NCBI GenBank assembly: GCA_041752095.1
Contig: JBGSHQ010000133.1
Span: forward strand, 1 to 36,548
Source of the DNA: Bdellovibrionia bacterium
GTDB taxonomy: Bacteria > Bdellovibrionota > UBA1018
Reading direction: 5' to 3'
Length of the DNA stretch: 36,548 nucleotides
Shown: positions 21,352 to 36,548 of the stretch, one piece after another
How the letters are laid out: every line of letters starts with the position of its first letter
Position numbering within the stretch: the stretch's first letter is position 1
Translations under genes and position numbers: made by a program
The notes under the pieces: model-generated
What the model saw: only the letters and a program-made list of their open reading frames with translations
Databases searched by the model: none
What the model was told of the DNA's origin: nothing

Positions 21352-21410
21352 ACTTTAGCCCACACTGTGGGTCAAATAGGTTGATTTTGACCCACAGTGT
21401 GGGCTAAAGT
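21352..21410. repeat. Perfect 25-bp inverted repeat with a 9-nt spacer (strong hairpin or palindromic operator)
   Basis: The left arm ACTTTAGCCCACACTGTGGGTCAAA (21352-21376) is the exact reverse complement of the right arm TTTGACCCACAGTGTGGGCTAAAGT (21386-21410). The loop is TAGGTTGAT. It ends 7 nt before the ATG of the AAA+ ATPase gene. Confidence 0.9.
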
Positions 21411-21417
21411 AGATATT

Positions 21418-22584
21418 ATGGTAAATCGTCTTTTATATCATGAACTTGATCAGAGTCTTAAAAAGTACGAAAAAAGTATACTAGTCCTCGGACCCAGGCA
21501 GGTGGGGAAAAGTACGCTCCTTAATCATTTAAAACCGACCCTCAGTATTCAGCTCTCAGATGAATCTATTTTCCGCGAACATTTAAACGACCCCGGGTTA
21601 ATCCGGCGTTTAGTCGCGGCACTCCCGCGAGCGAGTCGAATTTTTATCGATGAAATTCAGCGCCTCCCATCGATATTAAATACGGTTCAGTCCCTCGTTG
21701 ATGAAAAAAAGGGGTGGATCTTTTTAATGACCGGATCTTCCGCACGCAAGCTTTCCAGAGGAAAAGCAAATCTTCTACCAGGACGAATTTTTTCATATCG
21801 GATGCACCCCCTTACCTATTGGGAGCTGATGAGCCAGTGGAATCTAGAAAAGGTACTTACACTCGGAACTCTTCCAGAAGTGTATTTAGAGAGTTATGGC
21901 CCGCAGCTTTTGAAAAACTACATCGATACCTACTTGCGTGAAGAAATACAGGCCGAGGCTCTGATAAGAAATATATCTAACTTCTCGCGGTTTCTAAACC
22001 TCGCAGCGGAATCCTCAGGACAAATCATAAATTACTCGAAATTGGCGTCAGATAGCGAAATCCCTAAAGAAACGCTGAGACGATATTTCGATCTTCTCGT
22101 CGAGACACTGATTGTGCATAGATTAAGGGGATATACACATACCGAAGGTAAACGTAAGGCCGCTCAAAAGGAAAAATTCATTTTTTTCGACATGGGTGTT
22201 CGTAATGCCATACTGAAGCAACATACGAATGTATTTTCAGATTTACAAAAAGGACATCTTTTTGAGCAATGGATGTCATTACAGATGATTGCGTTTTCTA
22301 ATTACTATAATAAAGATTGGGATTTTTATTATTATCGAAATGACCTTAAGCAAGAAGTCGATCTTGTTGTCGATCAGGGCGATCATCTTCTTGCGCTCGA
22401 ATTTAAGTATGGTCGAAATATAAAAAAGGAAATGGCAGATGGACTTAGCGCATTTAAAGCGATTTCAAAAAAGCCAGTTATTGCGAGAATAATATATCAA
22501 GGAACAGAAATTCAATCGCTCGGCGATGAAATCGAGGCATGGCCCTACGAAAAATTTTTGGTCGATTTAATGAATCGAAAATGA
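21418..22584 (+). CDS. AAA+ ATPase of the AAA_14/DUF4143 (COG1373) type with a C-terminal PD-(D/E)xK nuclease-like motif
   Basis: Walker A GPRQVGKST (21490-21516) and Walker B RIFIDEIQ. The C-terminal EVDLVVDQGDHLLALEFKYG places D at 22360-22362 and E-F-K at 22399-22407. I prefer the ATG at 21418 over the track's GTG at 21397, which lies inside the inverted repeat. Confidence 0.85.
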   Translation: MVNRLLYHELDQSLKKYEKSILVLGPRQVGKSTLLNHLKPTLSIQLSDESIFREHLNDPGLIRRLVAALPRASRIFIDEIQRLPSILNTVQSLVDEKKGWIFLMTGSSARKLSRGKANLLPGRIFSYRMHPLTYWELMSQWNLEKVLTLGTLPEVYLESYGPQLLKNYIDTYLREEIQAEALIRNISNFSRFLNLAAESSGQIINYSKLASDSEIPKETLRRYFDLLVETLIVHRLRGYTHTEGKRKAAQKEKFIFFDMGVRNAILKQHTNVFSDLQKGHLFEQWMSLQMIAFSNYYNKDWDFYYYRNDLKQEVDLVVDQGDHLLALEFKYGRNIKKEMADGLSAFKAISKKPVIARIIYQGTEIQSLGDEIEAWPYEKFLVDLMNRK

Positions 22585-22590: not shown

Positions 22591-23493
22591 TTAAATCCGG
22601 CTCTCAATGAGCTTCTCGATCTGAGCATTAGTCAGTCCATGCTCGGATAGAGCGTAATCGTGACTCCCGCAGTGTTCTGCGAACTGATCTTTTAGAGAGA
22701 CGGAAAAAAGCCGAGGCGCATTTTTAATTCCCGACTCACAGAGTTCTTCCGCAACCGAAGAAAAAAGGCCGCCTGAACGATGGTGTTCCTCGATTACGAA
22801 TACTTTTTCGTAAGCACTCAGTTCCGAAATCAGATTCTTCGGAAACGACTTAATTCGCATTACACTCGCTGAGTCGAGCTTCAGATTCGTCGCAATTTCG
22901 AGCGCGGTGCTCGACATAGACCCTGTACCCAGAAGGAGCGTCTTAGAGCTATTTTTTTTCGTGAAACTAAATTCATCATTCGCAGGTAGCTTCGTATGAA
23001 CAGGTTTTCGGTCACTCTTCCCGATTCGAAGATAGGTAGGTCCCGTAGGGCTTGTCATCGCTTTTTTAAAGCAAGTTTCGAGTTCGAAAGCGTCTGCTGG
23101 AGAATAGATCGTGATCCCCGGCATCGGCCGAAGTGCTGCGACGTCTTCTCCACACTGGTGGGAAGAGCCCAGCGTCGAATATACGAGTCCGGCACCATCG
23201 CCGAGTAAAAGTACGGGAAGTTTCGAAATGCAGAGATCGAGTTTTATCTGCTCTAAAACCCGAATCGGTAAAAAAGCCGATAAACCGTAAACGATAGGTA
23301 AAAACCCCGTGCGAGCGAGCCCCGCCGCAATTCCGATCATTCCCTGCTCCGCAACACCTGCGTTTATGAACTGGTCTGGCGCCGCTTTCCTAACAGAGTC
23401 GAAAAGCGCATACCCGTGATCGCCCGAAAGAATCACCACTTTAGGATTATTTACGGCGTATTCAGTAATGAGGGAGGAAAGTTTTTCACGCAT
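22591..23493 (-). CDS. Transketolase, C-terminal (pyrimidine-binding) subunit of a split enzyme
   Basis: FINAGVAEQGMIGIAAGLARTGFLPIVYGLSAFLPIRVLEQIKLD...GSSHQCGEDVAALRPMPGITIYSPAD. 300 aa. Confidence 0.9.
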   Translation of the reverse strand: MREKLSSLITEYAVNNPKVVILSGDHGYALFDSVRKAAPDQFINAGVAEQGMIGIAAGLARTGFLPIVYGLSAFLPIRVLEQIKLDLCISKLPVLLLGDGAGLVYSTLGSSHQCGEDVAALRPMPGITIYSPADAFELETCFKKAMTSPTGPTYLRIGKSDRKPVHTKLPANDEFSFTKKNSSKTLLLGTGSMSSTALEIATNLKLDSASVMRIKSFPKNLISELSAYEKVFVIEEHHRSGGLFSSVAEELCESGIKNAPRLFSVSLKDQFAEHCGSHDYALSEHGLTNAQIEKLIESRI

Positions 23494-23495
23494 AA

Positions 23496-24317
23496 CTACT
23501 TCGAAACCTCGGCAATAGCGCGGGTAAACTTCTGCTCATCGAGTCGAGTATAGTGCCAGGTATTATCGTTTTCCATAAACGAAACACCTTTACCTTTTAC
23601 GGTACGGGCAATAATCGCGCGAGGTTTTCCATTCGTCGATGGCCCCACTGATTTTTCGAATTCACGACCGAGAGCCTCAAGCGAATGCCCGTCACATTCG
23701 ACCGCATCGAATCCGAACGCACGAAATTTTTCTACGAACGGTTCCATGCCGAGAATATCCTCGATTTTTCCCATCGCCTGGAAACCATTCGCATCGACGA
23801 TGACGGTTAAATTATCGAGTTTATGGTGGCTTGCGAAAAGCATCGCTTCCCACATCGATCCTTCGTTCATCTCACCGTCTCCGACGATGCAGAACACTCG
23901 TTTAGGGGCTTTACCCGATTTTGCGGCCTCTCGCTTAAATCCGAGAGCAACACCGGTCGCGATAGGAAGTCCGTGGCCGAGAGAACCTGAAGTCACTTCG
24001 AGCCCAGGGATATGGGCTTCACTTAATCCATGAAGAAGGGAGCCGTCTGAAAAATATTTTTCAATCGCTTCCCGAGGCAGCCACCCGATCTGGTGGAAGG
24101 CCGCGTAGAGCGCCATCACACCATGCCCCTTCGAGAGTACGAGGTAGTCGCGATCTTCGGAGCGCGGGTTCTTCGCATCATACCGAAGAAATTTCGAATA
24201 AAGCGAACTCACGATTTCGACGACGGAGAACGCACACGGGATGTGCACGGTTTTACCGAAGTAAGCCATTTCAAGAACGAGCTTACGTAAGGTATTGGGT
24301 GAAAGGTCGGGCTTCAT
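23496..24317 (-). CDS. Transketolase, N-terminal (thiamine-diphosphate-binding) subunit of a split enzyme
   Basis: SVVEIVSSLY...DRDYLVLSKGHGVMALYA...TSGSLGHGLPIATGVALG...CIVGDGEMNEGSMWEAMLFASHHKLDNLTVIVDANGFQ. 273 aa. It ends 2 nt before the C-terminal subunit starts. Confidence 0.9.
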   Translation of the reverse strand: MKPDLSPNTLRKLVLEMAYFGKTVHIPCAFSVVEIVSSLYSKFLRYDAKNPRSEDRDYLVLSKGHGVMALYAAFHQIGWLPREAIEKYFSDGSLLHGLSEAHIPGLEVTSGSLGHGLPIATGVALGFKREAAKSGKAPKRVFCIVGDGEMNEGSMWEAMLFASHHKLDNLTVIVDANGFQAMGKIEDILGMEPFVEKFRAFGFDAVECDGHSLEALGREFEKSVGPSTNGKPRAIIARTVKGKGVSFMENDNTWHYTRLDEQKFTRAIAEVSK

Positions 24318-24412: not shown

Positions 24413-26395
24413 GTGCGCGAATCCTTTTGGAGGCTTCCACGAATACGCCAGGTTCGGGCGACTGATCTTTGGATAGTGGGATTGCCCGTAGCGGTGATAG
24501 CAGTCCTCAGTTCCTACCTCATTGCTAAAATTTTTATTCTTTTTAGCGTTCAACCGAACACCTCAGAAGTCCTAGCGCTATTTCAAGCTGAGCTCACCCC
24601 GAAGCCCGAACAGCAGCTGCGGTATATTCTTCTTCTCCTATTCTGGCCGTTTTTATTTTTGGCTGGAGTCAGCGTGAAAAATCACTGGAAAAAATGGGCT
24701 CGACCTTTTCTCGTAATGACGAGTGTCGCTCTTCCATTGTTTCTCGTCATTAACCTGATTTATCAGGAAGCAGTCGTTCATGCATTTTTCATGACCAAAA
24801 GTGACACGCTTGGATACTCGGTCCTCGCATTCGTGGCAGCTCTCGCCATCACTTACTGGGTTTTAAAATCAGCAGTTTTTTCTGTAAAAAAAACTGTGGT
24901 GATTGCTCTCGGAGTTTCACTCCTTGAACTGATGGTGTGTATCGTCACCGAAGGAAACTATTTAGGAAGTGCAGTCGGTACAGGGACCCATCTTCCATTT
25001 ACGTTCGATGAATTTGCGGCGGTTGTGAATGGACACACTTTAGCTGTCGATTATTTTTCGCAGTACCAACAGTTTTTGCCTTATTTACTCAGCCCGATTT
25101 TTCATGTATTCGGCCTGAGTATTACGACTTATACCGCATCACTCTTAGTACTTTCCGCAAGTGTTCTTGGTTTGGTTTTTATAATTTTAAAAAAAGTTAC
25201 AAGTCGACCCGAGGTAGCACTTCTCCTCTTTATCTCTTGGCTTGGGATTGCGTTTTATCCAATCGAGCTAAATGGTGACTCCCGCTACCTAACGTTTACT
25301 TATTTTCCAATGGGCCCACTTCGTTATTTTGGGTTTTGGTTAGTCGCCTATTTGACGCTAAGGACAGTGACAGGTCCCGCTTCGTTTCGGCGTGAATATA
25401 TCTGTGCTGGAATTTCTGCTCTTTCTGCGATTAATACGCTCGATTTTGGGTTTCCGGCGATGGTGGGTTGTATTTTTGTACTCCTTACTTTTTCTCACCA
25501 ACCTAAGAAAACAGGAATTGCGATTATAGCAGGTGTAACCACCGCGGTCGGGATCTATTTAGGAAATTCATTTCTACGCTCAGGCCATCTTCCAGACTAT
25601 AGTGCGATCACATCCTATATTTTAGCCGTCAGTCGCGTCGGATATACATCGATCATCACACGAAGCCTCGGAATACACTGGATCTTTATCCTAGGACTTC
25701 TGATGAGCCTGATCCTTGGCATTCAGTTCCGCTGGAATGAAAAAAGGAGTGGGGTGGCGCTCAGTTCTCGTCGTCGCTCACTTGCCGCGATTCTTACTTT
25801 TATGGGAATTGCAGGAAGTGGAGTATTTGCATATTTTATGAACCGATCCCACTGGCATGTTCTCATCGTCAGTGCTCCGATCGTTGCTTTTCCTCTTTTT
25901 ATTTTTACAGCCATGTTTTTCGAAAAACGAGTGGTACCTTTCCCATTTCCAAAATTGTACCTAGCACCAAAAATCTTTCTTCTTCTTTTCGTTATTTACG
26001 GACTTTCACTCCATAAAAACTTTCCTAATCCGATCTCTCAGTGGAATCGAATTACAATGGTGGACGACTATTTTTCGAATTCGATGACGACTCTCGCCGA
26101 ACGGATTAGGATGTATGCGTCCCCGGGTGAATCGGTTGGTATTTGTTATCCTTTTGGGCAACTCATTGCCCATCGTGCTCAGGTCACAAATATTTTTCCC
26201 TATCCCCAAGCCTTATCGCTCGTTTTAAAGTCCCAAATCCTTCGTGTGGAGGAAATTTTTCAGAAAAACACCCCTAAATTCCTGTTTGGCAACTTTCCTG
26301 TCGAATTACTTCCGTGGATGAATGAAAATGGATTTATCGAAGTAGAGCGGGTAAATGATTTTACTATTTATCGACGGGGAGAGGTCAGGAAGTGA
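24413..26395 (+). CDS. Large polytopic membrane protein of unknown function (possible GT-C-like glycosyltransferase or polymerase)
   Basis: 660 aa with hydrophobic helices throughout. The only motif I could pick out is FTFDEFAAVVNGH (D199/E200 at 25007-25012). GTG start. Confidence 0.5.
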   Translation: MRESFWRLPRIRQVRATDLWIVGLPVAVIAVLSSYLIAKIFILFSVQPNTSEVLALFQAELTPKPEQQLRYILLLLFWPFLFLAGVSVKNHWKKWARPFLVMTSVALPLFLVINLIYQEAVVHAFFMTKSDTLGYSVLAFVAALAITYWVLKSAVFSVKKTVVIALGVSLLELMVCIVTEGNYLGSAVGTGTHLPFTFDEFAAVVNGHTLAVDYFSQYQQFLPYLLSPIFHVFGLSITTYTASLLVLSASVLGLVFIILKKVTSRPEVALLLFISWLGIAFYPIELNGDSRYLTFTYFPMGPLRYFGFWLVAYLTLRTVTGPASFRREYICAGISALSAINTLDFGFPAMVGCIFVLLTFSHQPKKTGIAIIAGVTTAVGIYLGNSFLRSGHLPDYSAITSYILAVSRVGYTSIITRSLGIHWIFILGLLMSLILGIQFRWNEKRSGVALSSRRRSLAAILTFMGIAGSGVFAYFMNRSHWHVLIVSAPIVAFPLFIFTAMFFEKRVVPFPFPKLYLAPKIFLLLFVIYGLSLHKNFPNPISQWNRITMVDDYFSNSMTTLAERIRMYASPGESVGICYPFGQLIAHRAQVTNIFPYPQALSLVLKSQILRVEEIFQKNTPKFLFGNFPVELLPWMNENGFIEVERVNDFTIYRRGEVRK

Positions 26396-28083
26396 TACGT
26401 AAATATTCGACCGAATTATTTTGGGGATTGCTCACTGCGATTTTTTCTTTAGTACCCTTTTTTCTTATCCAGAAGGGTGGAGGCCCTGTCCCGATCGATC
26501 TTCCTTTATTTCCGATTCATGGGGACTTTCATCTTGTTGCAAATCTCTTTGAAGGTGTCTCTCGCGGGGAAGTTATTCCTTATATTAAGAACGATTTACC
26601 AAGGATGGGGGCACCCTTTGCCCCATTAAATTTATCTGTAGGATTTCCACTTACTGAACAGTTCCAGCTCGCTGTCGTTAAAATTTTTTCTTTTTTCACA
26701 GAAAATTCAACCGAAACCTGGAATCTTTATTTTCTAGCTGGATATTTATTTTCAAGTCTTGCCTTTTTTCTTTCAGCGGTTTTGCTAGGAATTATGCCTG
26801 CAGTCGCCTTCGGATTATCTTTTGCATTTACCTACCTGCCGATGCACTTTATGCGGTACGAGCACATTTTTATTTCACAGTACTGGGTATTAGCTCCATC
26901 TGCAGCAATCATCCTTTCTATCCTTAAAAAGGAACGGCCCGTACCTCGTCGAACCCTATTCCTTTTAGCGGGATCAGTATTTTTTGTAACGCTTTGGCAC
27001 TCCTATTTTGGATTCTTCTATTCGGGTGTTCTCTGCATGGCACTCGTTTTCGATTTTATTCGAAAAAGAAGAAAACAGTTCGTGAGCCTATTTTTAGCTT
27101 CGATCCTTCCCTTTGTTATTGGGATCGTTCTTTCGACGGCACATCATACTTTTGCCTATCGCGAATCCAAGGACCCACCTCCGCCCTTTAAACGTTATCC
27201 GAGCGAAACGCTGTTTTATAGTCTGAGACCTTGGGCGATGCTCCTCCCTATTGATGGTCATCGATTCCAGCCGTTTAAAAAAATGCGTGATTATGGAAAA
27301 ACCCAGGAAAGTGGAATCGAAGGACTTACCGAATCGATCGGAACACTGGGTTTGATCGGATTTATTTTAGGTTTAGTTTCGCTCGTCCGACGAAAAAAAT
27401 TCGAGTCAGGACTTGTGGCTGTATTAGGTACCTTTTTTTCATTTCGAATCGGAATAGCATCTCTCGTCGCTTATACGGTTTATCCAGTTTTTCGGAGCAC
27501 GAATCGAATCAGCCCGATGATCGCCGCTGCGGCGTTGTTTGGCTTAGGGCTGGCACTTAAACCCCTGATAGAAAAATACTGGTTTCCTCGGCACAGAAAA
27601 TGGAGTGTCCCTCTCATTGGCTTTATTTTAGCCTTATTTTCAGTCTGGGATCAGGTCATCCCTGCAGAAAGTGCCGTCACTTCACAGAACGAAGAGTATA
27701 ACGCTCGAAAATTTATTCATGAAATCGAAGAGCGAGTCGGTTCTGGTGCCGTACTCCAGCTCCCTGTCGCTACTTTTCCTGAGCATGGTCCCGTATATTA
27801 TATGGTCGATTATGCCCATTCCGTTGCTCCCCGCTATAGTAAGAATACGAGATGGAGTTATGGGACATGGCGTGGGACCCAGGCGATGAATCAGATTTAT
27901 GGGGCTGCCGCTGACCCAGCTCATTTTAAAAACCTAAAAGCCATGGGTTTTTCAGGTGTTTGGATCGATCGATATGGATACCCGGATCGCGGAGATGCAC
28001 TCATTTCTGAAATTTCACGCCGAACGAACTCGCCTTTTATTTCCTCAGGCGATGGGCGGCGCGTATTCTTTTTCGTTCCTTAA
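26392..28083 (+). CDS. Polytopic membrane protein with a C-terminal soluble domain, function unknown (GT-C-like candidate)
   Basis: 563 aa. After TM1 comes FPIHGDFHLVANLFEG (D45 at 26524-26526), then NDLPRMGAPFAPLNLSVGFP. The GTG start forms a GTGA overlap with the upstream gene. Confidence 0.5.
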   Translation: MIRKYSTELFWGLLTAIFSLVPFFLIQKGGGPVPIDLPLFPIHGDFHLVANLFEGVSRGEVIPYIKNDLPRMGAPFAPLNLSVGFPLTEQFQLAVVKIFSFFTENSTETWNLYFLAGYLFSSLAFFLSAVLLGIMPAVAFGLSFAFTYLPMHFMRYEHIFISQYWVLAPSAAIILSILKKERPVPRRTLFLLAGSVFFVTLWHSYFGFFYSGVLCMALVFDFIRKRRKQFVSLFLASILPFVIGIVLSTAHHTFAYRESKDPPPPFKRYPSETLFYSLRPWAMLLPIDGHRFQPFKKMRDYGKTQESGIEGLTESIGTLGLIGFILGLVSLVRRKKFESGLVAVLGTFFSFRIGIASLVAYTVYPVFRSTNRISPMIAAAALFGLGLALKPLIEKYWFPRHRKWSVPLIGFILALFSVWDQVIPAESAVTSQNEEYNARKFIHEIEERVGSGAVLQLPVATFPEHGPVYYMVDYAHSVAPRYSKNTRWSYGTWRGTQAMNQIYGAAADPAHFKNLKAMGFSGVWIDRYGYPDRGDALISEISRRTNSPFISSGDGRRVFFFVP

Positions 28084-28910
28084 CGTGATTTTGGCATCCA
28101 AGGTGCCTTTTTCTCTGTGATCAGAGATTCGAGATAAATTTTATCTCGTAGAGTATCCATCGGCTGCCAAAACCCGGTGTGATGGTGCATGGAAAGCTTT
28201 CCGTCTTTCGCAAGTTTATTTAAAGGAGTTCGCTCGAGGATGCATTCTGCATCAGTCGATAGGTAGTCGCGAAAGTTTTTCTGGAAGAAAAAGAATCCAC
28301 CATTAATCCAATCGGAGCGGGACTGGGGCTTTTCCGAAAAATCTAAAACGCGCTGGTCTGTATCGACGGTGAGTTCACCAAAACGAGCACTCGGGTGCAC
28401 GCCGAGTACAGTTCCAGTATTTCCCATCTTTAAGTGAGCAGCGAGTTCTTTATCGAGTGCAACATCAGAAACACCGTCTCCATAAGTGACCGCAAAATGA
28501 TCGAATTTTTCACCCTGGATCGAATCAAAAGCACGTGCAACTCGTCCACCCGTCATACAGTCTACGCCGGTGTCGATGACTCGAACACGCCAGTTTTCCT
28601 GCTCACCTTTAGCCCCGAAAGCGTGGGCGGGAGTGTCCGTATTTTTTCTGTGGTCGATTTCGATATGGGTTTTTCGAAATCCATAGGTGAGAAAGTACTG
28701 TTTAATTTCCCAGGAGCGATAGCCGGCACAAATCACAAAATCATTAAACCCGAAACTATAATACGACCGCATAATATGGAGTAGGATGGGTTCTCCGCCT
28801 ACTTCAATCATCGGTTTTGGGCGAAACTGACTTTCTTCGGAAATTCGGGTTCCGAGGCCACCGGCTAGAATAAAGACAGGTACTTGGCTTGGAAGAACTG
28901 GATTTGACAT
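28080..28910 (-). CDS. rfbF: Glucose-1-phosphate cytidylyltransferase
   Basis: VFILAGGLGTRISEES..PKPMIEVGGEPILLHIM...DFVICAGY...MTGGR...TYGDGVSDV...INGGFFFF...GFWQPMDTLRDKIYLESL...KAPW match my recollection of Salmonella RfbF block by block. Confidence 0.9.
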   Translation of the reverse strand: MSNPVLPSQVPVFILAGGLGTRISEESQFRPKPMIEVGGEPILLHIMRSYYSFGFNDFVICAGYRSWEIKQYFLTYGFRKTHIEIDHRKNTDTPAHAFGAKGEQENWRVRVIDTGVDCMTGGRVARAFDSIQGEKFDHFAVTYGDGVSDVALDKELAAHLKMGNTGTVLGVHPSARFGELTVDTDQRVLDFSEKPQSRSDWINGGFFFFQKNFRDYLSTDAECILERTPLNKLAKDGKLSMHHHTGFWQPMDTLRDKIYLESLITEKKAPWMPKSR

Positions 28911-28952
28911 GACCAGAAAATAGCACCTAAAATTAAGTTTCTCGACAGCTTT

Positions 28953-30536
28953 TTATCGTTTCTCATAACGACAGATCACTTCGTGCGGTCCACATTCGAT
29001 CTGAGTCCAGTGCGTCGCAAGCTCTGAACGAGGGTCGATTTTCTGGAGGAAGGCTTGCCTCGCATCGCTGATTAAAAGAGAACTTTTCCCGCTTTTTTCA
29101 GCCCCTGAGAGTCGAAGAGATTCGTGGTCGGTTAGAAGGGGATAGGTGAGTTCATCTCCCAGAAGAACTTCATCCCGGAAGATTTTTTTTAGGCTAGCTC
29201 GGACCCAAAGAACGTCTGAAATTTTACTTGGATCATCGCTGTATTCACGAAAATGAGAAATCGGCCATGTTCCTGATAGAGCGAGCGCAGAGAGAAGACT
29301 GAGTGTAAAAAAACTTCGGGGGATTCGTTGGCGCGATACGAGGGTACGAATGGATTCACATAATCCAAACCCAAAAAATGGAATGAGAAGAATGTCATAA
29401 TGAAACTGCATCATTCGTTGCGTAGCCGCCTCAGAAAGTAGGTTTCCGAAAATCAGGATAAAGCCTGGGATATAATAGGGGTTAAAGGCGCGTAGAGCGA
29501 TGAGTGTAATCGGTGCGGCAATCGTAAAGAGGTATTTAAATCGATCGCGAGTGGCGAGGTGCGAAATTATTTTTGAAATATTATCCAGTGGATGAAAGGC
29601 AAAGTTCTGGATGATTTCGCTGGGTGAGCTGCCTAAGTAAGAAAGGCGTTTAACGAGTTCACTGCCTGAACCCGATGAAGGCGTCCAGTGCGGTAAAATA
29701 TAGAAATAAACTGTGGCAAATACTGAAACACTAAAGGCTCCATACACCATTAAAAGCAGACGTGGGGGGCGAGATGAATTCGCATAAAGACCCCCAATCA
29801 TTGCAAAGGGGAGAAGGATCGCCCCCGTTTCTTTTGAGAGTGCGGCGAGTAGAAATGGAATGAGAGCAAGAATGGGTCTTTTTGCTCTCAGCGTGAGGAA
29901 TGCGAGAACATAAAACACCGCTCCTATGAGATCTTCCCGAAAATCAAAAATAAAACTTTCTCGAATTCCTCGTATGCAGAGGAGAAAGAAAAATATAAAC
30001 GCGAGGTGTTCCTTTTTTATTTCGTTTCGATAAACCCGAAATAGAAGCCAAAAACAAAAAAACCCTAATACGGACTGCAAAAGGGGAACCGCAAAGGGTG
30101 TGCCGAGGAGATTCGTTATTGGCCCAAGAAGAAGGAGGGTGAAGGACGAATGCTCACCGAGATAACTTTCGTTAAAGCAAACATGGCAACTTAATAAAGG
30201 ACTGCTGAAAGCCTTAAAAAGAGACTGATAAACAAATCCTGCATCATAGGCATGAACATTTAATGTGAGAAATCGAATCAAGTGGGCAAGAAAAAGAGAT
30301 CCAAAAATAAAAGAAATAAAGATCAGGGGTCTCTGTGCAATTCGGTTTCTTAACTGAGAAACAGATGGCAAGAGAAGGGTTTGCTTTTGGTAATTAAGGG
30401 CGAGAGCGAAAACGAGTGCAACCGCCATCCACGCGTCGAGCGATAAAAAATCTATTTTATAGAGTCTACCGCCACCTGTAATGAGAATGGCGGCAGAAAT
30501 AAAAAGAAAAAAATGAAGAAGAGATCGAATCTTCAT
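28953..30536 (-). CDS. DUF2079-like polytopic membrane protein (predicted GT-C-type glycosyltransferase)
   Basis: 527 aa with many TM helices. HAYDAGFVYQSLFKAF and GEHSSFTLLLLGP resemble the conserved loop and HFSP-type blocks I associate with DUF2079. It starts 3 nt after the stop of a GtrB-like GT2. Confidence 0.55.
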   Translation of the reverse strand: MKIRSLLHFFLFISAAILITGGGRLYKIDFLSLDAWMAVALVFALALNYQKQTLLLPSVSQLRNRIAQRPLIFISFIFGSLFLAHLIRFLTLNVHAYDAGFVYQSLFKAFSSPLLSCHVCFNESYLGEHSSFTLLLLGPITNLLGTPFAVPLLQSVLGFFCFWLLFRVYRNEIKKEHLAFIFFFLLCIRGIRESFIFDFREDLIGAVFYVLAFLTLRAKRPILALIPFLLAALSKETGAILLPFAMIGGLYANSSRPPRLLLMVYGAFSVSVFATVYFYILPHWTPSSGSGSELVKRLSYLGSSPSEIIQNFAFHPLDNISKIISHLATRDRFKYLFTIAAPITLIALRAFNPYYIPGFILIFGNLLSEAATQRMMQFHYDILLIPFFGFGLCESIRTLVSRQRIPRSFFTLSLLSALALSGTWPISHFREYSDDPSKISDVLWVRASLKKIFRDEVLLGDELTYPLLTDHESLRLSGAEKSGKSSLLISDARQAFLQKIDPRSELATHWTQIECGPHEVICRYEKR

Positions 30537-30539
30537 TCA

Positions 30540-31484
30540 TTATTCTCGCTTCTCGATAAAGTACCGAGGGCGTCGTTTCACTTCTTGATAAATTTTTCCG
30601 AGATACTGCCCGATTACTCCCGTACATAAGAGCTGTACACCGCCGATAAAGAGAAGCGGCATCAGCATGGATGTCCATCCGGCAATCGCTTTTCCCGTAA
30701 TCCACGTAAAGATGACCCAAAGCCCAACTGCGAAGCTGATTAAACAGACAATGAATCCCAGCCACACGATAAAATTAAGTGGCTTCGTACTAAAAGAAGT
30801 TATCCCATCCCAAGCAAAGGCGAGCATTTTTCTGAGTGGATATTTCGATTCTCCTGCCATTCGCGCATCTCGCGCGTAGAAAATCTTTTTCGAGGGGTAA
30901 CCCAAGAGGGGAATGATACCCCGAAGAAATAGATTCGTTTCATCAAAGTGGCTGAGTGCTTCGAGTGCCCGAGTTCCAAGTAATCGACAGTCCGCATGGT
31001 TTTCTACGAGTTCGACTCCGAGTTTTTCCATAAATCGATAAAAAATTTCTGCGCTCCCACGTTTAAATCCTGAATCGGTAGAGCGATCTTCTCTGACTCC
31101 GTAAACAATTTCGTTTCCCTTGAGGAAGGCCTCAATAAACTGGGGAATAGTCGAGGCCGGGTCTTGGAGATCGGCATCTAAAGAGATAAGGGCATGAGCT
31201 TCGTCTCGCATCGACATGAGTCCTGCGAAGAGTGCACGCTGATGACCTACGTTTCTGGAAAGTTTAAGACCGCGATAAAGAGTCCCCTTAGCGATCCAGT
31301 CACTCGTTTTTGCCCATGTCCGATCACGACTTCCATCATCGATAAAACAGACAAAACTCCCCGGATCAATTTTTCCTGAAGTGATCAGTCCTTGGAGTTC
31401 GCTGCCCACGGCGTGAGCGGTTAAATCAAATGATTCTTCTTCATTATAGCAAGGAATGATGACGCCAATACGGGGTGCAGACAT
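30540..31484 (-). CDS. Polyprenyl-phosphate glycosyltransferase, GT2 (GtrB/ArnC-like, two C-terminal TM helices)
   Basis: IGVIIPCYNEEES...FIDDGSRDRT...SRNVGHQRAL...LISLDADLQDP...NEIVYGVRE. The C-terminal TM pair is FIVWLGFIVCLISFAVGLWVIF / LMPLLFIGGVQLLCTGVIGQYLG. It is a paralogue of 20269-21201. Confidence 0.85.
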   Translation of the reverse strand: MSAPRIGVIIPCYNEEESFDLTAHAVGSELQGLITSGKIDPGSFVCFIDDGSRDRTWAKTSDWIAKGTLYRGLKLSRNVGHQRALFAGLMSMRDEAHALISLDADLQDPASTIPQFIEAFLKGNEIVYGVREDRSTDSGFKRGSAEIFYRFMEKLGVELVENHADCRLLGTRALEALSHFDETNLFLRGIIPLLGYPSKKIFYARDARMAGESKYPLRKMLAFAWDGITSFSTKPLNFIVWLGFIVCLISFAVGLWVIFTWITGKAIAGWTSMLMPLLFIGGVQLLCTGVIGQYLGKIYQEVKRRPRYFIEKRE

Positions 31485-31528
31485 GTCAATGAGTGTATGG
31501 AATCTGGCTCGTATTATAAATAGCTATT

Positions 31529-32431
31529 TTACCGGGAGTGAATCGCATCCCGTATGGTCTGCTCGACTGAGATCGTGCGACATTCGCGACCGATTCTATT
31601 TTCGACCTTTGTGGGATCACCGATAATCTCAGGAATATCGTCGGCTCGAGCTGCACCTTCCGTAATCGAGTTGATCAGAGAGTCAGCTTCATTCGGATGG
31701 ATCTCCTTTAAGGCTGTTTCGAGAAGATATGCGATTTCGACTCCTTCGCCTGAGCATAGATTGAAGATTCCAGTAGCAGAAATCGAAGCCAGTCGTAGTA
31801 GCGTCATGCAAACATCGCGCGAGTCGAGGTAGTCTCTTAAATTCGAAAGGCCCGGAACGTCTTTTAAGTCCTTCGATCGCGCACGACGAATGACGGACTG
31901 GAGAACATAATGGGCTGGCTGTTTAGGAGCGATGAGCCCAAAGACTCGAGCTATCGTCAGTGGTGTTTTAGTTTCGGTACAGAGCCGAGCGAGCTCATTT
32001 TCTGCTTCGAGTTTCGTTGAAGCATAAACCGACCGTGGCTTTATAGGGTCCGTTTCTAATATTCTTCCCGATTTAGGCGCATAAATATGTCCGGTGCTGA
32101 CATAAATAATTTTGGGAACTAATTTTTCTTTTTTTGCCGCAGAAATAAATGTGTTTACCGTCGAAACCGTATCGGTAACATTGGTTTGATGGGCGAGTTT
32201 GGGATCTTTTTCGCATCCGGGGACAGAAACCATTGCCGCAAGCTGTAAAAGGACAGCGTATCCCCCAGGATAAACATTCGGCATTTGTTCGGTGAGTTCT
32301 TTAATGAGTCCAGGACTATCTTCAAGTCTCGATTGAATTTTATAGGTTTCAATTCCGAGTCGTTTTGCCGAACCCTCGATATAAGTGCCTAAACTCCCTG
32401 TAGCACCATTATAAAAAACTGCGCCCTTCAT
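31529..32431 (-). CDS. NAD(P)-dependent extended SDR (epimerase/dehydratase/reductase family); candidate 4-reductase/epimerase of the deoxyhexose branch
   Basis: Glycine-rich NGATGSLG near the N-terminus and the catalytic SVYASTKLEAE (YxxxK). 300 aa. It overlaps the upstream GT2 stop by 4 nt. Confidence 0.8.
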   Translation of the reverse strand: MKGAVFYNGATGSLGTYIEGSAKRLGIETYKIQSRLEDSPGLIKELTEQMPNVYPGGYAVLLQLAAMVSVPGCEKDPKLAHQTNVTDTVSTVNTFISAAKKEKLVPKIIYVSTGHIYAPKSGRILETDPIKPRSVYASTKLEAENELARLCTETKTPLTIARVFGLIAPKQPAHYVLQSVIRRARSKDLKDVPGLSNLRDYLDSRDVCMTLLRLASISATGIFNLCSGEGVEIAYLLETALKEIHPNEADSLINSITEGAARADDIPEIIGDPTKVENRIGRECRTISVEQTIRDAIHSR

Positions 32432-33186
32432 GTTTTAGTAACAGGGGTCAGGGATTTAGTATGATGTTCCCAGGCGATCGAAAAAATCCCGAGAAACGCA
32501 CTCGAGACTTCTTTAAAATTCGTATTACTTTCACCACGAACGCGGTTTTTAAAATAAATCGGAAACGTAAGAATCTTCATATTCGACCGTAAGAGCTGAG
32601 ATAGGGATTCGGAAAGATAAATATAACCCTCGTGTTTCTGATCGAGTCTGAGAAGAACTTCGAGAGCGCGAGGAGAATAAAATCGAAATCCATTCGTATA
32701 ATCAGGAATTTTCCAGTCGATGAGGATTCGGGCGAGTAGGTTTGCGCAGAAGGAAAGAATCCACCGTTTAAGCGGCCAACCTTCGATTTTTCCATCGGGG
32801 TAACGACATCCGAGGGCGACATCTCCCTTTTTCAGTAATTCAAGCCCCGTCGCGATTGCCTTCGGCTCATGCGAAAAATCGCAGTCCATTTCGATGTAAG
32901 CTGTGAATCCACGCCCCGAATCCCGTCCCCATTTAAGACCCGTACGCACGGCGCCACCGCGACCATCTTTTTTAGTACGTGTGATTAAATGGACGCGTTC
33001 TGCCCAGTTATTAGAGGCGATCGCATTTTTTATAATCGCTGTCGTTCCATCGGGAGACGAGTCGTCCACGACACAAACTGAAAAACCATCGCCAAGCGCT
33101 AAAAGGGCTTCGATAAGGGCAACAATATTATCTTTCTCGTTATAAGAAGGAAGAACGATGAGGGTGCGTGGTGTAGTGTTCGTCAT
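32428..33186 (-). CDS. Dpm1/Ppm1-like polyprenol-phosphate glycosyltransferase, GT2 (soluble type, no TM helices)
   Basis: LIVLPSYNEKDNIVALIEAL...VVDDSSPDGT...KKDGRGGAVRTG...YIEMDCDFSHEP...GCRY..G...GWPLKR..LS..AN...DYTNGFRFY match the dolichol/polyprenol-P-mannose synthase pattern. Confidence 0.85.
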   Translation of the reverse strand: MTNTTPRTLIVLPSYNEKDNIVALIEALLALGDGFSVCVVDDSSPDGTTAIIKNAIASNNWAERVHLITRTKKDGRGGAVRTGLKWGRDSGRGFTAYIEMDCDFSHEPKAIATGLELLKKGDVALGCRYPDGKIEGWPLKRWILSFCANLLARILIDWKIPDYTNGFRFYSPRALEVLLRLDQKHEGYIYLSESLSQLLRSNMKILTFPIYFKNRVRGESNTNFKEVSSAFLGIFSIAWEHHTKSLTPVTKT

Positions 33187-33193
33187 TTATTTT

Positions 33194-34411
33194 TTAGAGC
33201 TTAGAGAGTTCTGTAAATGCTTTTTCTAAAACCGCTTTGGCTGATGGGTCCAGTACCGGATGGCACCCAATCATAAAACCACGTGAAAGAATTTCATCAC
33301 AAGTTCCAAGCCCAGGTGCGCTTCGAGTTTCCAGCCCCGCGTTCGCCGGATGTCTCGCAAGGTTGCCAGCGATAATCGGTCGAGTAGCAACTCCTGCGGA
33401 TTCGAAAATTTCTTTTACTTTTGCGGCGGTGACAGGAGCCTTCGGGTTAAGTCGAAACGGAAAAGTCATCCAGGAATGACGGCGTTCCCGACGTGTGATT
33501 TTTTTATCCGTAAGATGTTCGGCGCCAATCAGTTTCATCCACGGTGCATTTTTTATCGTCCACTCATTCACGGTTTTTGCGAGTTTTTCTCGCGCTTCCA
33601 GCATTGAATCGAGTTTTCTGAGTTGAACTGACCCAATCGCAGCAGCGACTTCAGTAGGACGAACATTATATCCGGGCATAATAAAAAGAAAACGAGGATC
33701 GAGTTCAGGATTTTTCTTTGCCCACTCTGCGTGATCACTTCGATCCCGAGTCCATCCGTGTGCACGGATACTCTTTAAGTCGTCGTAAATTTCAGAGTCG
33801 TTCGTAGTGATCATTCCACCTTCCATTGTCGAAATGTGGTGGGAGAAAAAGCAGGAGTAGGATCCTGTAACGCCGAAGGTTCCAGCGTGGGTTCCATTGA
33901 AATGTGCGCCTAAGCTTTCACAGTTATCTTCGATCAGATCGAGATCGGCTTCTTCGCAGAACTGGTTTATCTTCGCCATGTCGGCCGCCTGGCCTAAAAC
34001 ATGGATTAAAAACATCCCTTTTGTTTTTTCGGTAAGCGCGCAACGCGCAGATTCAACATCGATTGCAAGCGTCTTCGGATCGACATCAACATAAACAGGA
34101 ACGAGCCCGAGCTGGACGAGTGGCCAGACCGTCGTTGGCCAGGCAAGCGCTGGAACTAAAACCTCGTCTCCCCGTTTCCAAGGAGCAGTTCCTCGCGATC
34201 TGCGAAGCATGAGATCGACCATGAGTAAATTCGAAGAGGAACCCGAATTCACCATGATCGAGTGCTTAGCACCGGTCCACTCAGCAAATTCGCGCTCAAA
34301 TTTACTAACGCGTTCACCCATGGTGAATTGGTTGCTGTCGAAAACCGCTTTTGCGGCTTCAATTTCTTCGGGACCAAAAGTAGTAGAGGCGAGGGGGTAT
34401 GAAGATGACAT
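33194..34411 (-). CDS. colD: PLP/PMP-dependent sugar 3-dehydratase of the DegT/DnrJ/EryC1 fold, ColD-type (GDP-4-keto-6-deoxy-D-mannose 3-dehydratase)
   Basis: YPLASTTFGPEEIEAA...FTMGERVSKFEREFA...MVNSGSSSNLLM...IEDNCESLGA...GTFG...SCFFSHHISTMEGG...IRAHGWTRD...MPGYNVRP. His replaces the Schiff-base Lys (H191/H192 at 33836-33841). The protein lacks the Cys-rich Fe-S insert I associate with RfbH/E1. Confidence 0.8.
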   Translation of the reverse strand: MSSSYPLASTTFGPEEIEAAKAVFDSNQFTMGERVSKFEREFAEWTGAKHSIMVNSGSSSNLLMVDLMLRRSRGTAPWKRGDEVLVPALAWPTTVWPLVQLGLVPVYVDVDPKTLAIDVESARCALTEKTKGMFLIHVLGQAADMAKINQFCEEADLDLIEDNCESLGAHFNGTHAGTFGVTGSYSCFFSHHISTMEGGMITTNDSEIYDDLKSIRAHGWTRDRSDHAEWAKKNPELDPRFLFIMPGYNVRPTEVAAAIGSVQLRKLDSMLEAREKLAKTVNEWTIKNAPWMKLIGAEHLTDKKITRRERRHSWMTFPFRLNPKAPVTAAKVKEIFESAGVATRPIIAGNLARHPANAGLETRSAPGLGTCDEILSRGFMIGCHPVLDPSAKAVLEKAFTELSKL

Positions 34412-34520
34412 TTAGAGTATTTCTTTCATGCGCGGAGAATTTCGTCCACCAGACTCTGTACCGATTTACGAACTTCTTAAGATTGACAACGCAACGCCCC
34501 CTAGTGGATGAAATGAGGAT
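34412..34520. promoter_or_regulatory. Divergent intergenic region between the colD operon and gmd
   Basis: Two divergent starts flank it. TTGACA lies at 34483-34488 on the plus strand. No clear -10 follows at 16-18 nt. Confidence 0.3.
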
Positions 34521-35528
34521 ATGAAAAAGGCGTTTATCACTGGAATTACGGGTCAGGATGGATCTTATCTCGCAGAGCTACTTCTCGAAAAGGGGTACGA
34601 AGTCCATGGCATGATCAGGCGTTCTTCGACTTTTAATCGGGAACGCATCGATCCTCTTTTTTTCTACGAAGGTTCGAAAGTTAAAGATCGCATTTTTCTT
34701 CATTACGGCGACCTCGCGGACGGGTCGGCACTGAACCGCATTCTTCGAACAGTGAAGCCAGAAGAAATTTACCACCTGGGTGCCCAGTCTCACGTACGGG
34801 TGTCGTTTGATGTTCCAGAATATACAGCTGATATCACCGGTACCGGAACGATTCGAATCCTAGATGCGATTTTAGAAACCGGAATTAATACGAAATTCTA
34901 TCAAGCATCGAGTTCCGAAATGTACGGGAAGGTGATGGAAGTTCCCCAAAAGGAAACGACACCGTTCTACCCTCGTTCTCCGTACGGCTGCGCAAAAGTA
35001 TATGCCTACTGGATTACGGTAAACTACCGCGAAGCCTATAATATGCACGCCTCGAACGGTATTCTGTTTAATCACGAATCTCCTCGTCGTGGGGAATCGT
35101 TCGTAACTCGAAAAATCACGAAAACTCTCGCTCGCATTATGGCGGGTAAGTCGAAGGACCTAGCTCTTGGAAACCTCGATGCAAAACGCGACTGGGGTTA
35201 CGCAAAAGACTACGTCGAAGCGATGTGGATGATGCTTCAAGCTCCGACCGCAGATGATTACGTCATTGCGACGAACGAAACCCATTCAATTAAAGAATTT
35301 CTCGATCTTGCGTTTGGGCATGTGGGTCGTGACTGGAAAGAGTATGTTCGCATCGATCCGAAATACTATCGCCCGACGGAAGTGGATCTTCTTATCGGAG
35401 ATCCATCGAAGGCCCGTGAAAAGCTCGGATGGAAACCGAAAACTTCCTTTAAAGAACTCGTACGCCTTATGGTCTATGAAGATTTAAAGGCAGAAGGTCT
35501 CGATCCCGAAAAGCTAATGAAGCACTAA
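34521..35528 (+). CDS. gmd: GDP-mannose 4,6-dehydratase
   Basis: [27 protein letters not shown]...HYGDL...[11 protein letters not shown]...[31 protein letters not shown]...[22 protein letters not shown]...[18 protein letters not shown] are near-identical blocks to my recollection of E. coli Gmd. Confidence 0.95.
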
Positions 35529-36547
35529 GCTTTAGCAGTTTTTCGAAGTAAAAATCCGACCGATGCGACGAGATAGCACCCTTCCGTTAGGAACGGGACC
35601 GAGTAGGGACTCATGAGAGATCCGAGAGATACAGTCGCACCTGCTGCGACTATCAGTGAAAAGAGATCGATTTGGTTCAACTTTTTCATATTGAGTACCG
35701 AATGGATCGAAAGCAGCAGTACTGGAAAGAAAAAAACTCCATTATACGCACTTCGCGGTGATGGAAGAAGAATATCAACGAAATAGACCGAGGAAAAAAA
35801 CCGAAGTGAAAAGATTTCTAGCGATTCAGTGCGGTTCTTCCAGAGTTTCCAGCCCGTGATGAGAGAGGCGAAAAGTACAGAGAGCATTCGAATGGAGTAC
35901 GGAAAAACTCCGAGTCCCATTTTAACGGCATAATGATGGATGATATTTCCAGGCCCACCGAAATTAATCACACCACGAATTACTGGGTCGCCCTCTATGA
36001 TTAACGGAAAGTTAAATGCTACGGGGGGTATGCGTTCATGGCTTTCGGAATATCGGAGATACCAGTCTTTGGCTGATGCTAAATAATCGAGCCACAAGTG
36101 GAAGGGATATTTTAGAAGCGTGGGAAGGACCGCAATGACCCCAACACCTGTAATCAATAAAACAGATCGAATCACTCTCTTTTCTCGAAAACTTAAAAAT
36201 AAAGTGAACCCCAATGTCTGTCGAAATACGACTGAAAGAGCGCTAAAAAATCGACTTGTATTTGAATGGGTAAAAACGGCGAGGGTCAGGGCCAGTGTAA
36301 GAAATGAATACTGCTGACCTCGTTCGAGATGGAAAGCCCACACCCCCGAGACCGCCATCACCCCACTCCCTAAGACGAGTGAAGCGAGAAGAGGGGTTCG
36401 ATTTTTTAATTTTTTTCGTAAACCGAAAAAAATTACTGCAGGGATTAATAGAAAAGCGAACCAGTTTAATAAAAAGTTCCACCACTTCTGAGTGAGCCAC
36501 GGAAGGTCTGCAAATAAACTATGAATCCAAAGCACTGTAGGCGGGGA
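35525..36547 (-). CDS. Polytopic membrane protein (DUF2029/GT87-like candidate); probably 5'-truncated by the window edge
   Basis: The track gives 35525-36535 with a GTG start. The frame stays open to the window end, so the N-terminus may lie outside the window. The protein is hydrophobic throughout. Its stop overlaps the gmd stop by 4 nt. Confidence 0.5.
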
Positions 36548-36548
36548 A

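Follow-up and report, generated by a model that had tools for sequence, protein, structure and literature searches.

A recurrent ColD-glycosyltransferase-reductase module in a Bdellovibrionia glycan cluster and a possible route to lipid-linked deoxyhexose donors

Can a deoxyhexose built from GDP-mannose be loaded onto a lipid monophosphate carrier and used on the outer side of the membrane? The question is raised by contig JBGSHQ010000133.1 of a Bdellovibrionia bacterium (36,548 nt, analysed over its whole length and called the window here), a 36.5-kb glycan cluster with a G+C content of about 45% that includes a priming phosphoglycosyltransferase, several glycosyltransferases (GTs), the GDP-L-fucose synthase Fcl, GalE and three GTs of family 2 (GT2) of the type that uses polyprenyl phosphate. 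Six minus-strand open reading frames (ORFs) of this cluster encode, in order, a ColD-like 3-dehydratase, a Dpm1-like GT2, an extended short-chain dehydrogenase/reductase (SDR), a GtrB/ArnC-type GT2, a DUF2079 membrane protein and an RfbF-like cytidylyltransferase (Table 1). A sequence-only reading had taken the six as a single system with the logic of the Arn pathway, in which a colitose- or fucose-like sugar is made, loaded on a polyprenyl carrier and transferred outside.

Re-reading of the coordinates gave the same six ORFs and the same tight packing (gaps of 3 to 44 nt had been reported): there is a 4-nt overlap at 32428–32431, and the remaining gaps are 7, 44, 3 and 42 nt. The operon is divergent from gmd, as described, with a 109-nt spacer between gmd and the ColD-like gene, and all six family assignments hold in profile searches or in alignments to solved structures. 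The view of the six genes as one system was not borne out, as the full order is not conserved and the functional unit differs. What recurs across phyla is the set of the first three genes (the triad) together with gmd, and because of this recurrence their arrangement exceeds chance.

We lean towards the interpretation that a four- or five-gene core makes a lipid-linked deoxy-sugar donor, which is transferred outside the cytoplasm by a membrane enzyme of the GT-C type. Gmd would convert GDP-mannose to GDP-4-keto-6-deoxymannose, which is the established function of its family. The ColD-like enzyme would remove the 3-hydroxyl, and the SDR would reduce the 4-keto group to give a GDP-3,6-dideoxyhexose. 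The Dpm1-like GT2, which has no transmembrane (TM) helix, would then pass the sugar to polyprenyl phosphate at the cytoplasmic face, a role indicated by gene linkage and by its acceptor-phosphate site. A putative flippase would turn the lipid-linked sugar across the membrane, where, to judge from the gene neighbourhood, a GT-C enzyme would attach it periplasmically to a surface glycan, lipid A/core or protein. Candidates for the last step are a GT87-like protein (35525–36548) and/or the DUF2079 protein in the window, and GT87, DUF2079, PMT_2 or TMEM260-like proteins elsewhere. The identity of the donor sugar is inferred. That tailoring enzymes of the GDP-mannose route are tied to a Dpm1-like GT2 and a GT-C enzyme, as had been suggested, has strong comparative support in conserved and rearranged synteny and in stand-alone islands, and is also backed by the acceptor-phosphate and guanine-binding residues that the GT2 retains.

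Linkage of the triad across genomes

Related loci were recovered by scanning genomes, one per species, with two exact peptide motifs as seeds. The six-frame ORFs of the 50 loci returned were searched with the window proteins, and 39 loci were found to belong to the clade of the window GT2 and 11 to Acidimicrobiia (individual loci carry an L number below). The GT2 gene has a ColD-like gene within 6 kb in 30 of the 39 clade loci, and has gmd within the same distance in about 13 related loci. In seven Pfam-annotated contigs with diverse GT2 homologues, a DegT gene of ColD size and an SDR gene flank the GT2 in every case (7/7), and GT87 is the next gene or nearby in five. The GT2 family (about 242 aa) shows 58–74% identity across metagenome-assembled genomes (MAGs) labelled Bdellovibrionales, Myxococcota and Acidobacteria, while the taxa of the related loci include Bdellovibrionota, Myxococcota, an Elusimicrobia MAG and SAR11. 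The closest relative among the retrieved loci, L025, is an Oligoflexia (Bdellovibrionota) MAG contig with 90% identity over the GT2. In most loci ColD, GT2 and SDR are joined by abutting or overlapping start and stop codons.

The ColD/SDR/GT2 set is carried by about 14 loci of Pelagibacteraceae (SAR11), from single-cell genomes and MAGs (L027, L028, L030, L034–L036, L039–L043, L049, L054 and L055), frequently with neighbouring polytopic membrane proteins that lack a Pfam match. At least three gene orders are found among them, GT2-gmd-ColD-SDR, ColD-SDR-GT2, and GT2 convergent with an SDR-ColD pair. The rearranged orders point to selection on linkage rather than shared ancestry, and a linkage that survives rearrangement across phyla argues for functional coupling and not for historical accident. 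The Acidimicrobiia GT2s (about 36% identity) offer a natural negative control: they branch separately in a neighbour-joining tree, have a ColD or SDR neighbour in none of the 11 loci, and are plausibly ordinary Ppm1 enzymes.

The order ColD-GT2-SDR-GT87 is found as a stand-alone unit in several Myxococcota-type contigs (L003, L005 and L063). In L003 and L005 it forms a four-gene island amid unrelated genes, with no gmd and no further glycosyltransferase nearby. Among the contigs with stand-alone islands are JASJCT010000011.1, CAWBEN010000002.1 and JAIXQO010000001.1. L060 has GT2-SDR-GT87 and a convergent DegT gene of ColD size. The L012 island (7578–13273) comprises a membrane protein gene, gmd and a divergent GT2-SDR-DUF2079 set (DUF2079 match of 85 bits), with no ColD gene in 20 kb, and is putatively a form of the module for a 6-deoxyhexose. 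Apart from the GT2 and the GT-C, no glycosyltransferase is encoded in the immediate flanks of L003, L005, L060 and L012. In the Elusimicrobia locus L029 (6683–12697), a PMT_2-type GT-C and an Fcl-like SDR are divergent from the GT2, and a sugar C-methyltransferase gene (Methyltransf_14) lies downstream; this variant may make a C-methylated deoxy-sugar on the lipid carrier. The L012 and L029 variants indicate that the clade GT2 travels with differing sets of GDP-deoxyhexose tailoring enzymes and a GT-C.

Two other features of these neighbourhoods were observed. Directly upstream of GT2-SDR-GT87 in L060 (2555–6864) are genes for an inositol-1-phosphate synthase, a second DegT aminotransferase, an LPG_synthase_TM protein and an inositol monophosphatase, which hints at an inositol-containing lipid as a possible acceptor there. 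A gene for an AAA_14/DUF4143 ATPase breaks into the glycan cluster of the window (21397–22584, plus strand), and a gene of the same family is found at 19125–20261 of L003, about 8 kb from the module; its presence may be a coincidence, or may be associated with a mobile element or with defence.

Predicted functions of the module proteins

The ColD-like protein, a predicted GDP-4-keto-6-deoxy-D-mannose 3-dehydratase dependent on pyridoxal or pyridoxamine phosphate, matches Escherichia coli ColD (2gms) with 281 bits and about 50% identity over the alignment reported, and belongs to the Pfam family DegT_DnrJ_EryC1 (261 bits). Within its S-H-H motif (residues 190–192), a His equivalent to ColD His188 occupies the position of the lysine that binds pyridoxal phosphate (PLP), and the entry for the H188N mutant (3b8x) fixes which His of the motif corresponds to His188. 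The GT2-linked homologues share the motif S-H-[HQ], with the catalytic His present in 30 of 30 and the aminotransferase Lys in none. Since His replaces the PLP Lys, the linked DegT-fold proteins are predicted to be dehydratases and not ArnB-like transaminases, and the homology together with the catalytic His points to 3-deoxygenation as the probable reaction. ColD regenerates its cofactor from glutamate and requires no E3 reductase, which suits a compact module. A different assignment for this gene, as a CDP-type E1 enzyme partnering RfbF, was considered since its best NCBIfam name is RfbH (262 bits, under the cut-off of 423). This was ruled out by the much lower score to the CDP-type E1 3bcx (177 bits, vs 281 for ColD), as well as by the adjoining gmd and by RfbF being unlinked in relatives.

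The best matches of the SDR among solved structures are Rmd enzymes, 6x3b (a GDP-6-deoxy-D-mannose reductase, 50 bits) and 2pk3. Its Pfam matches are Epimerase, GDP_Man_Dehyd and RmlD_sub_bind, without a formyltransferase domain, and no Fcl/ColC-type model matched it in the NCBIfam search. Three motifs, GxxGxxG, S-[ST]-x-H-[VIL]-[YF] and YxxxK, are kept in all triad-linked homologues. The invariant His of the second motif, two residues past the catalytic Ser/Thr, aligns with a Cys in the window Fcl and a Glu in Gmd; GDP-fucose synthase and Gmd use these residues as catalytic acid/base. The linked SDRs constitute a small, distinct subfamily (51 clusters at E ≤ 1e-30 among 1.84 billion representative proteins), and the enzyme is proposed to be the C4-ketoreductase of a GDP-4-keto-3,6-dideoxyhexose. 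With no Fcl/ColC-type match, and with Rmd enzymes as its best solved relatives, the SDR establishes neither the product configuration nor the name 'colitose' used in the sequence-only reading.

Gmd reaches the equivalog level of its family model (TIGR01472, 538 bits vs a cut-off of 415). The cluster also encodes Fcl (15166–16113; 480.5 bits, barely below the cut-off of 500), with GalE in the same stretch (15166–17148, plus strand). As Fcl is present as well, the single gmd of the window probably supplies both the GDP-fucose branch and the ColD branch.

For the Dpm1-like GT2, the best NCBIfam match is PpgS, which uses UDP-GalNAc, so that the earlier premise of Dpm1-type synthases using GDP-sugars is too narrow. 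The best solved relative is the dolichyl-phosphate-mannose synthase (DPMS) of Pyrococcus furiosus (PfDPMS, 78 bits). An AlphaFold2 (AF2) model built from a 19-sequence alignment shows a GT-A fold with a predicted local distance difference test (pLDDT) score of 91.9, and the structures ranked 1–14 in a Foldseek search of the PDB are DPMS, ArnC and GtrB, with soluble GT-A enzymes ranking after these. Residues were mapped by sequence alignment and by reference to the PfDPMS structure paper (PMC5526996), according to which Arg117, Arg131 and Ser135 hold the phosphate of dolichyl phosphate, Asp39 and Gly68 bind guanine, Asp89 and His94 contact mannosyl O2 and O3, respectively, and Leu69, which stacks on guanine, is said to be sensitive to the sugar O2. 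At least 97% of the triad clade keep the equivalents of Glu12, Asp39, Gly68, Asp89/Asp91 (the DxD motif), His94 and Arg202 (A-loop), and in the window GT2 the DxD motif (D101/D103) and the A-loop Arg (R215) are conserved. The acceptor-phosphate site Arg117/Arg131/Ser135 corresponds to R128/R141/S145 here, which are invariant in alignment A1 and conserved in 97% of the clade.

Twelve alignment columns separate the triad clade from the Acidimicrobiia GT2s, and two of these are donor-contact positions of PfDPMS. Leu69 is replaced by Arg (Arg76) in 100% of the clade and Lys178 by Ile (Ile189) in 93%, while the Acidimicrobiia GT2s have Leu and Gly at the two positions. Such changes in the predicted donor pocket fit an altered donor without proving one. 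A reading of the Lys178 to Ile replacement as a signature of 6-deoxy sugars was dropped, as human DPM1 reportedly has Val there, and the position is used only to discriminate the clade from Acidimicrobiia.

Polytopic membrane proteins are concentrated around the module. Polytopic ORFs, defined as those of at least 300 aa with at least six predicted TM segments, were counted in the 29 loci with enough flanking sequence; one is present within 2 kb of the module in 20 of these, and their density is 0.285 per kb near the module vs 0.051 per kb further off. All neighbours recognised by Pfam (above cut-off) are GT87, DUF2079, PMT_2 or TMEM260-like, and Pfam's own names for the last two refer to dolichyl-phosphate-mannose-dependent or O-mannosyl transferases. 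Clustering of the triad-adjacent membrane proteins by blastp and phmmer gave no clusters, the proteins being too divergent.

The transferase had been sought among the genes between RfbF and gmd, but a likely GT-C partner, a GT87-like gene, lies just beyond them at 35525–36548. Its reading frame is open to the end of the window, and it is tail-to-tail with gmd; a 434-aa homologue in L001 also abuts gmd. When aligned by hhalign to a two-sequence profile of GT87-like triad neighbours, the protein gave a probability of 87.5% (E 3.6e-6, 289 columns), compared to 1.8% and 3% for two controls, the DUF2079 protein and a 416-aa protein of L001. A direct Pfam search with it gave no match. As a remote GT87-like candidate, it is a likely transferase partner for the lipid-linked sugar. 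The 416-aa membrane protein gene, which follows the SDR in L001 and L009, matches neither the GT87-like profile nor the window membrane proteins.

The DUF2079 protein matches its Pfam model well (72.3 bits vs a cut-off of 28.2), and its gene starts 3 nt past the GtrB-like gene. Its sequence gave no match to solved structures. The AF2 model is of low confidence (pLDDT 66.6) and its Foldseek matches are weak (E ≥ 0.026), with GT-C enzymes making up 11 of the 12 best of them (STT3, PglB, ALG9, ALG6, AftA and ArnT). An invariant Asp, D29, follows the first TM helix. A DUF2079 gene is directly 3' of GT2-SDR in L012. Seven homologues of the window protein were found, and both of the retrieved contexts (about 51% identity) adjoin DsbD, with no GT2 near; these orthologues give no support for a fixed partnership with a GT2, and the earlier inclusion of the protein as a fixed part of the system could not be sustained. 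It is a probable GT-C transferase that partners the GtrB-like GT2, the Dpm1-like GT2, or both.

Alternative explanations and relation to known systems

Several observations weigh against a deoxyhexose donor. The GT2 keeps the equivalents of His94 (O3) and Asp89 (O2), which fits ordinary mannose, and the His in particular counts against a 3-deoxy donor because such a donor would not need it. Characterised GT87 enzymes are polyprenyl-phosphate-mannose-dependent mannosyltransferases, so the GT2 and a GT87 could be a plain mannosylation pair. About a quarter of the clade loci (L012, L023, L024, L029, L031 and L038) have no ColD neighbour, the motif-seeded genome scan is a biased sampling, and all carriers of the module are uncultivated (MAGs or single-amplified genomes). 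In the window, the GT-C partner is ambiguous, the GT87-like call being one profile-profile match and the DUF2079 model being of low confidence, and no flippase gene was found.

The main alternative, rather unlikely but of appreciable weight, is that the GT2 is an ordinary polyprenyl-phosphate-mannose synthase serving a GT-C mannosyltransferase, with an unlinked cytoplasmic Leloir GT adding the dideoxyhexose to the same glycan. The clustering would then be explained, as both branches draw on GDP-mannose and build one structure. The mannose specificity of the closest solved relative (DPMS) and the conserved contacts to mannosyl O2 and O3 agree with this, as does the fact that the commonest partner, GT87, is known from mannosyltransferases only, and the window has several Leloir-type GTs that could take a GDP-dideoxyhexose (a GT1 at 12820–13899, and GT2s at 1761–3526 and 10693–11598). 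However, no Leloir GT is present in the stand-alone islands L003 and L005 (ColD-GT2-SDR-GT87) or L012 (gmd-GT2-SDR-DUF2079), and the explanation needs an unlinked one in each of several phyla. Nor does it sit easily with a GT2 gene wedged between ColD and SDR, its start and stop codons abutting or overlapping theirs in most loci, with a linkage that persists through the SAR11 rearrangements, or with the finding that GT2s lacking ColD/SDR neighbours (those of Acidimicrobiia) branch apart and have Leu and Gly at the Arg76 and Ile189 positions. That the GT2 is instead a peripheral GT-A Leloir transferase with some other acceptor (a phosphorylated small molecule, a lipid-linked oligosaccharide or a protein) appears improbable. 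It has no TM helix, and its structural matches include the soluble mannosylglycerate synthase, GpgS and the WrtF fucosyltransferase (E 1e-9 to 1e-11), but catalytic subunits of the DPM1/Ppm1 type without TM helices are well known (human DPM1, mycobacterial Ppm1), the top 14 structural matches are all polyprenyl-phosphate GT2s, and the three residues that contact the dolichyl-phosphate phosphate in PfDPMS are conserved in 97% of the clade. The enrichment of adjoining GT-C-type membrane proteins would also be hard to account for otherwise.

It could further be argued that there is no functional coupling at all, the six genes being mere neighbours from independent pathways in a mosaic polysaccharide cluster. 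The window is indeed a large glycan cluster, with several GTs and three polyprenyl-phosphate GT2s, and the linkage of RfbF, the GtrB-like gene and DUF2079 to the triad is not a stable one. For the triad itself this explanation is contradicted, as it recurs in at least four phylum-level groups and also outside any polysaccharide cluster, and a single recently transferred element is disfavoured by 36–70% sequence divergence and by the rearranged orders; we consider an absence of coupling very improbable.

The preferred interpretation, a lipid-linked deoxy-sugar donor, places the module close to several known systems. As in the Arn pathway, a DegT-fold enzyme and an SDR would tailor a nucleotide sugar, a GT2 would load it on polyprenyl phosphate, and a GT-C would transfer it periplasmically, the genes being co-operonic. 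In contrast to ArnB, a transaminase with a PLP Lys, the DegT-fold enzyme of the module is a predicted 3-dehydratase with His, and the precursor would be GDP-mannose whereas 4-amino-4-deoxy-L-arabinose (L-Ara4N), the sugar added to lipid A, derives from UDP-glucuronate. The module has no formyltransferase, decarboxylase or deformylase, and no ArnE/F-type flippase was found with it. Its loader is DPM1-like and without a TM helix, unlike ArnC, and its candidate transferase is GT87-like or DUF2079 in place of ArnT. The NCBIfam models of ArnC, ArnB and ArnA score far under their cut-offs in the window. The resemblance to Arn is one of logic, not of membership.

The pairing of DPMS or Ppm1 with a GT-C (GT87 of the PimE/MptC type, or PMT) is similar in that the module GT2 is closest to DPMS, keeps its catalytic, guanine-binding and acceptor-phosphate residues, and recurs beside GT87, PMT_2 and TMEM260-like partners. 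It differs in the setting of the module GT2, which has a ColD-type dehydratase and a dedicated SDR on either side and often gmd nearby, and in that this GT2 belongs to a distinct clade of the tree, in which Leu69 has given way to Arg and Lys178 to Ile; a 3,6-dideoxy- or 6-deoxyhexose, and not mannose, would be the sugar. In common with the Gtr systems (GtrA/GtrB/GtrC; a pentofuranose variant is described in PMC11127046), the window has a full-length GtrB homologue (30540–31484) followed by a polytopic GT-C-like protein. It differs from them in having no GtrA-like flippase and in having three loaders (two GtrB-like and one DPM1-like), and deoxyhexoses are not among the donors described in the literature searched (hexoses, amino sugars, uronic acids and pentofuranoses); a 2024 paper on the three-component systems treats hexose (glucose, galactose) and pentofuranose donors. 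The GDP-L-colitose pathway (ManB/ManC, Gmd, ColD, ColC) of E. coli O55/O111, Yersinia pseudotuberculosis and Vibrio cholerae O139 shares with the module Gmd and a ColD homologue with the catalytic His, but the module reductase is not ColC/Fcl-like, and the known pathways add colitose by cytoplasmic Leloir GTs and not through a lipid monophosphate carrier. The module would work like the Arn, DPMS/GT-C and Gtr systems and is a member of none of them.

The polyprenyl-phosphate-linked deoxyhexose donor had been put forward as one without a characterised precedent, and this agrees with the open-access literature searched in the current study (on DUF2079, on fucose and rhamnose linked to undecaprenyl phosphate (Und-P-Fuc and Und-P-Rha), and on colitose with polyprenyl carriers), in which no lipid-monophosphate deoxyhexose donor was found. 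The dolichyl-phosphate-rhamnose of Haloferax volcanii was examined as a precedent and rejected, as rhamnose there joins a trisaccharide already bound to dolichyl phosphate at the cytosolic face (PMC3892788). Whether the proposal can be widened to the entire clade is, in our judgement, evenly poised: the ColD-linked Dpm1-like GT2s would be unrecognised GDP-deoxyhexose:polyprenyl-phosphate transferases that occur across phyla, with polyprenyl-phosphate-3,6-dideoxyhexose as product, or polyprenyl-phosphate-6-deoxyhexose where the variant is gmd-GT2-SDR, and C-methylated forms as a possibility for Elusimicrobia. Diverse GT-C enzymes would use these products to decorate the envelope periplasmically, in carriers that include SAR11, predatory Bdellovibrionota and Myxococcota.

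Other genes of the cluster and significance

Table 1. Module genes and adjacent features of the window (positions in nt)
Feature	Position	Strand	Remarks
ColD-like 3-dehydratase	33194..34411	-	405 aa
Dpm1/DPMS-like polyprenyl-phosphate GT2	32428..33186	-	252 aa, no TM helix
Extended SDR	31529..32431	-	300 aa
GtrB/ArnC-type polyprenyl-phosphate GT2	30540..31484	-	314 aa, two C-terminal TM helices
DUF2079 polytopic membrane protein	28953..30536	-	527 aa
RfbF-like glucose-1-phosphate cytidylyltransferase	28080..28910	-	276 aa
Gmd, GDP-mannose 4,6-dehydratase	34521..35528	+	TIGR01472
Polytopic membrane protein, remote GT87-like GT-C candidate	35525..36548	-	N-terminus lost at contig end
Divergent intergenic region between ColD-like gene and gmd, presumed promoters	34412..34520	.	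109 nt

A promoter consensus scan gave no promoter-like site in the spacer between the ColD-like gene and gmd, and promoter and terminator scans within the operon gave nothing above chance (counts over 27900–34600 did not exceed those in shuffled sequence). One promoter-like site on the minus strand (31513–31542; TTCACT, 18-nt spacer, TATAAT; 10 of 12 matches) spans the 3' end of the SDR gene and the 44-nt gap, and could drive GtrB-DUF2079-RfbF separately, the number of such sites in the region being not above chance.

The three genes that complete the operon behave differently from the triad. The GtrB-like GT2 aligns over residues 6–310, which is its full length including the C-terminal TM hairpin, to GtrB (5ekp, 188 bits), and with 116 bits to ArnC. 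In NCBIfam it reaches neither the PgfS model (210.6 bits, cut-off 500) nor that of ArnC (121 bits, cut-off 529), and by these scores it is a member of the GtrB/ArnC family that is orthologous to neither. Its gene had been counted as part of the system, yet among related loci it comes after the triad in those of Bdellovibrionota alone (L001, L007 and L009), and the membrane protein after it differs each time: in place of the DUF2079 protein found here, homologues of the 496-aa or 563-aa proteins of the window are present. A varying membrane partner is what a Gtr-type system with a variable GtrC would show, and the GtrB-like GT2 and the DUF2079 protein probably constitute a second, parallel Gtr-type system for hexose decoration within the same transcription unit. 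The window yielded no GtrA- or ArnE/F-like flippase, and the tight packing leaves no room for a small membrane ORF in 28080–34411.

RfbF scores just below the cut-off of its family model (TIGR02623, 279.5 vs 300.25 bits) and aligns over its full length to 1tzf (218 bits). In related loci it travels with an E1-like dehydrase and an SDR similar to CDP-glucose dehydratase, and not with the triad; no gene for a CDP-glucose 4,6-dehydratase or an E1 was found among the window ORFs scanned. RfbF, also assigned to the system originally, is a neighbour from CDP-sugar metabolism and not a conserved part of the module.

Elsewhere in the window, another GtrB-like GT2 is encoded upstream at 20269–21201 (minus strand; 197 bits to the PgfS model and 117 bits to ArnC), which brings the number of polyprenyl-phosphate sugar loaders to three, two GtrB-like and one DPM1-like. 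It is followed by two genes for large polytopic proteins without Pfam matches (18544–20268 and 17120–18610), and a homologue of the window 496-aa protein follows the GtrB-like gene in L001. Two more large polytopic proteins, of 660 and 563 aa, are encoded with overlapping stop and start codons at 24413–28083 (plus strand) and have no match in Pfam, NCBIfam or other families; L007 has a homologue of the 563-aa one beside its GtrB-like gene, and both are candidates for GT-C or polymerase-like proteins that are as yet unclassified. Among small ORFs of at least 120 aa, the window has a single unassigned one, at 4486–4857 (minus strand, 123 aa), which looks like an N-terminal remnant of a GT2 and is not a membrane protein. 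It carries the motif IVIPTFN, matches the Pfam GT2 model with E 0.03 over 33 residues, and is probably a decayed glycosyltransferase gene. A split, transketolase-like pair is located at 22591–24317 (minus strand), with the subunit that binds thiamine pyrophosphate N-terminal (23496–24317) and the pyrimidine-binding/C-terminal subunit separate (22591–23493), and may serve the synthesis of a branched-chain or higher-carbon sugar. The G+C content falls from the average of about 0.45 to 0.37–0.40 at 7001–9000 and 19001–20000, where unassigned membrane proteins and a methyltransferase are encoded, and this suggests a mosaic origin of parts of the cluster.

To our knowledge, deoxy- and dideoxyhexoses are added in the cytoplasm by Leloir GTs, in the pathways that are known or were found in the literature searched. 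The module suggests a route not yet described for these sugars, in which a dideoxy sugar is loaded on a lipid carrier and added from outside the cytoplasm. If this is correct, polyprenyl-phosphate-dideoxyhexose would represent a new class of donor for extracytoplasmic glycosylation, and the first lipid-monophosphate donors of deoxy-sugars. Parts of the poorly characterised GT-C families (DUF2079 and the non-mycobacterial GT87) would gain a first testable function. Its small size puts the cassette within reach of direct heterologous tests, and it could be of use in the glycoengineering of rare sugars. In nature it would provide a compact and portable means of surface modification, of four to five genes, to abundant uncultivated bacteria, among them SAR11, in which the variation of surface glycans matters for interactions with phages and grazers.

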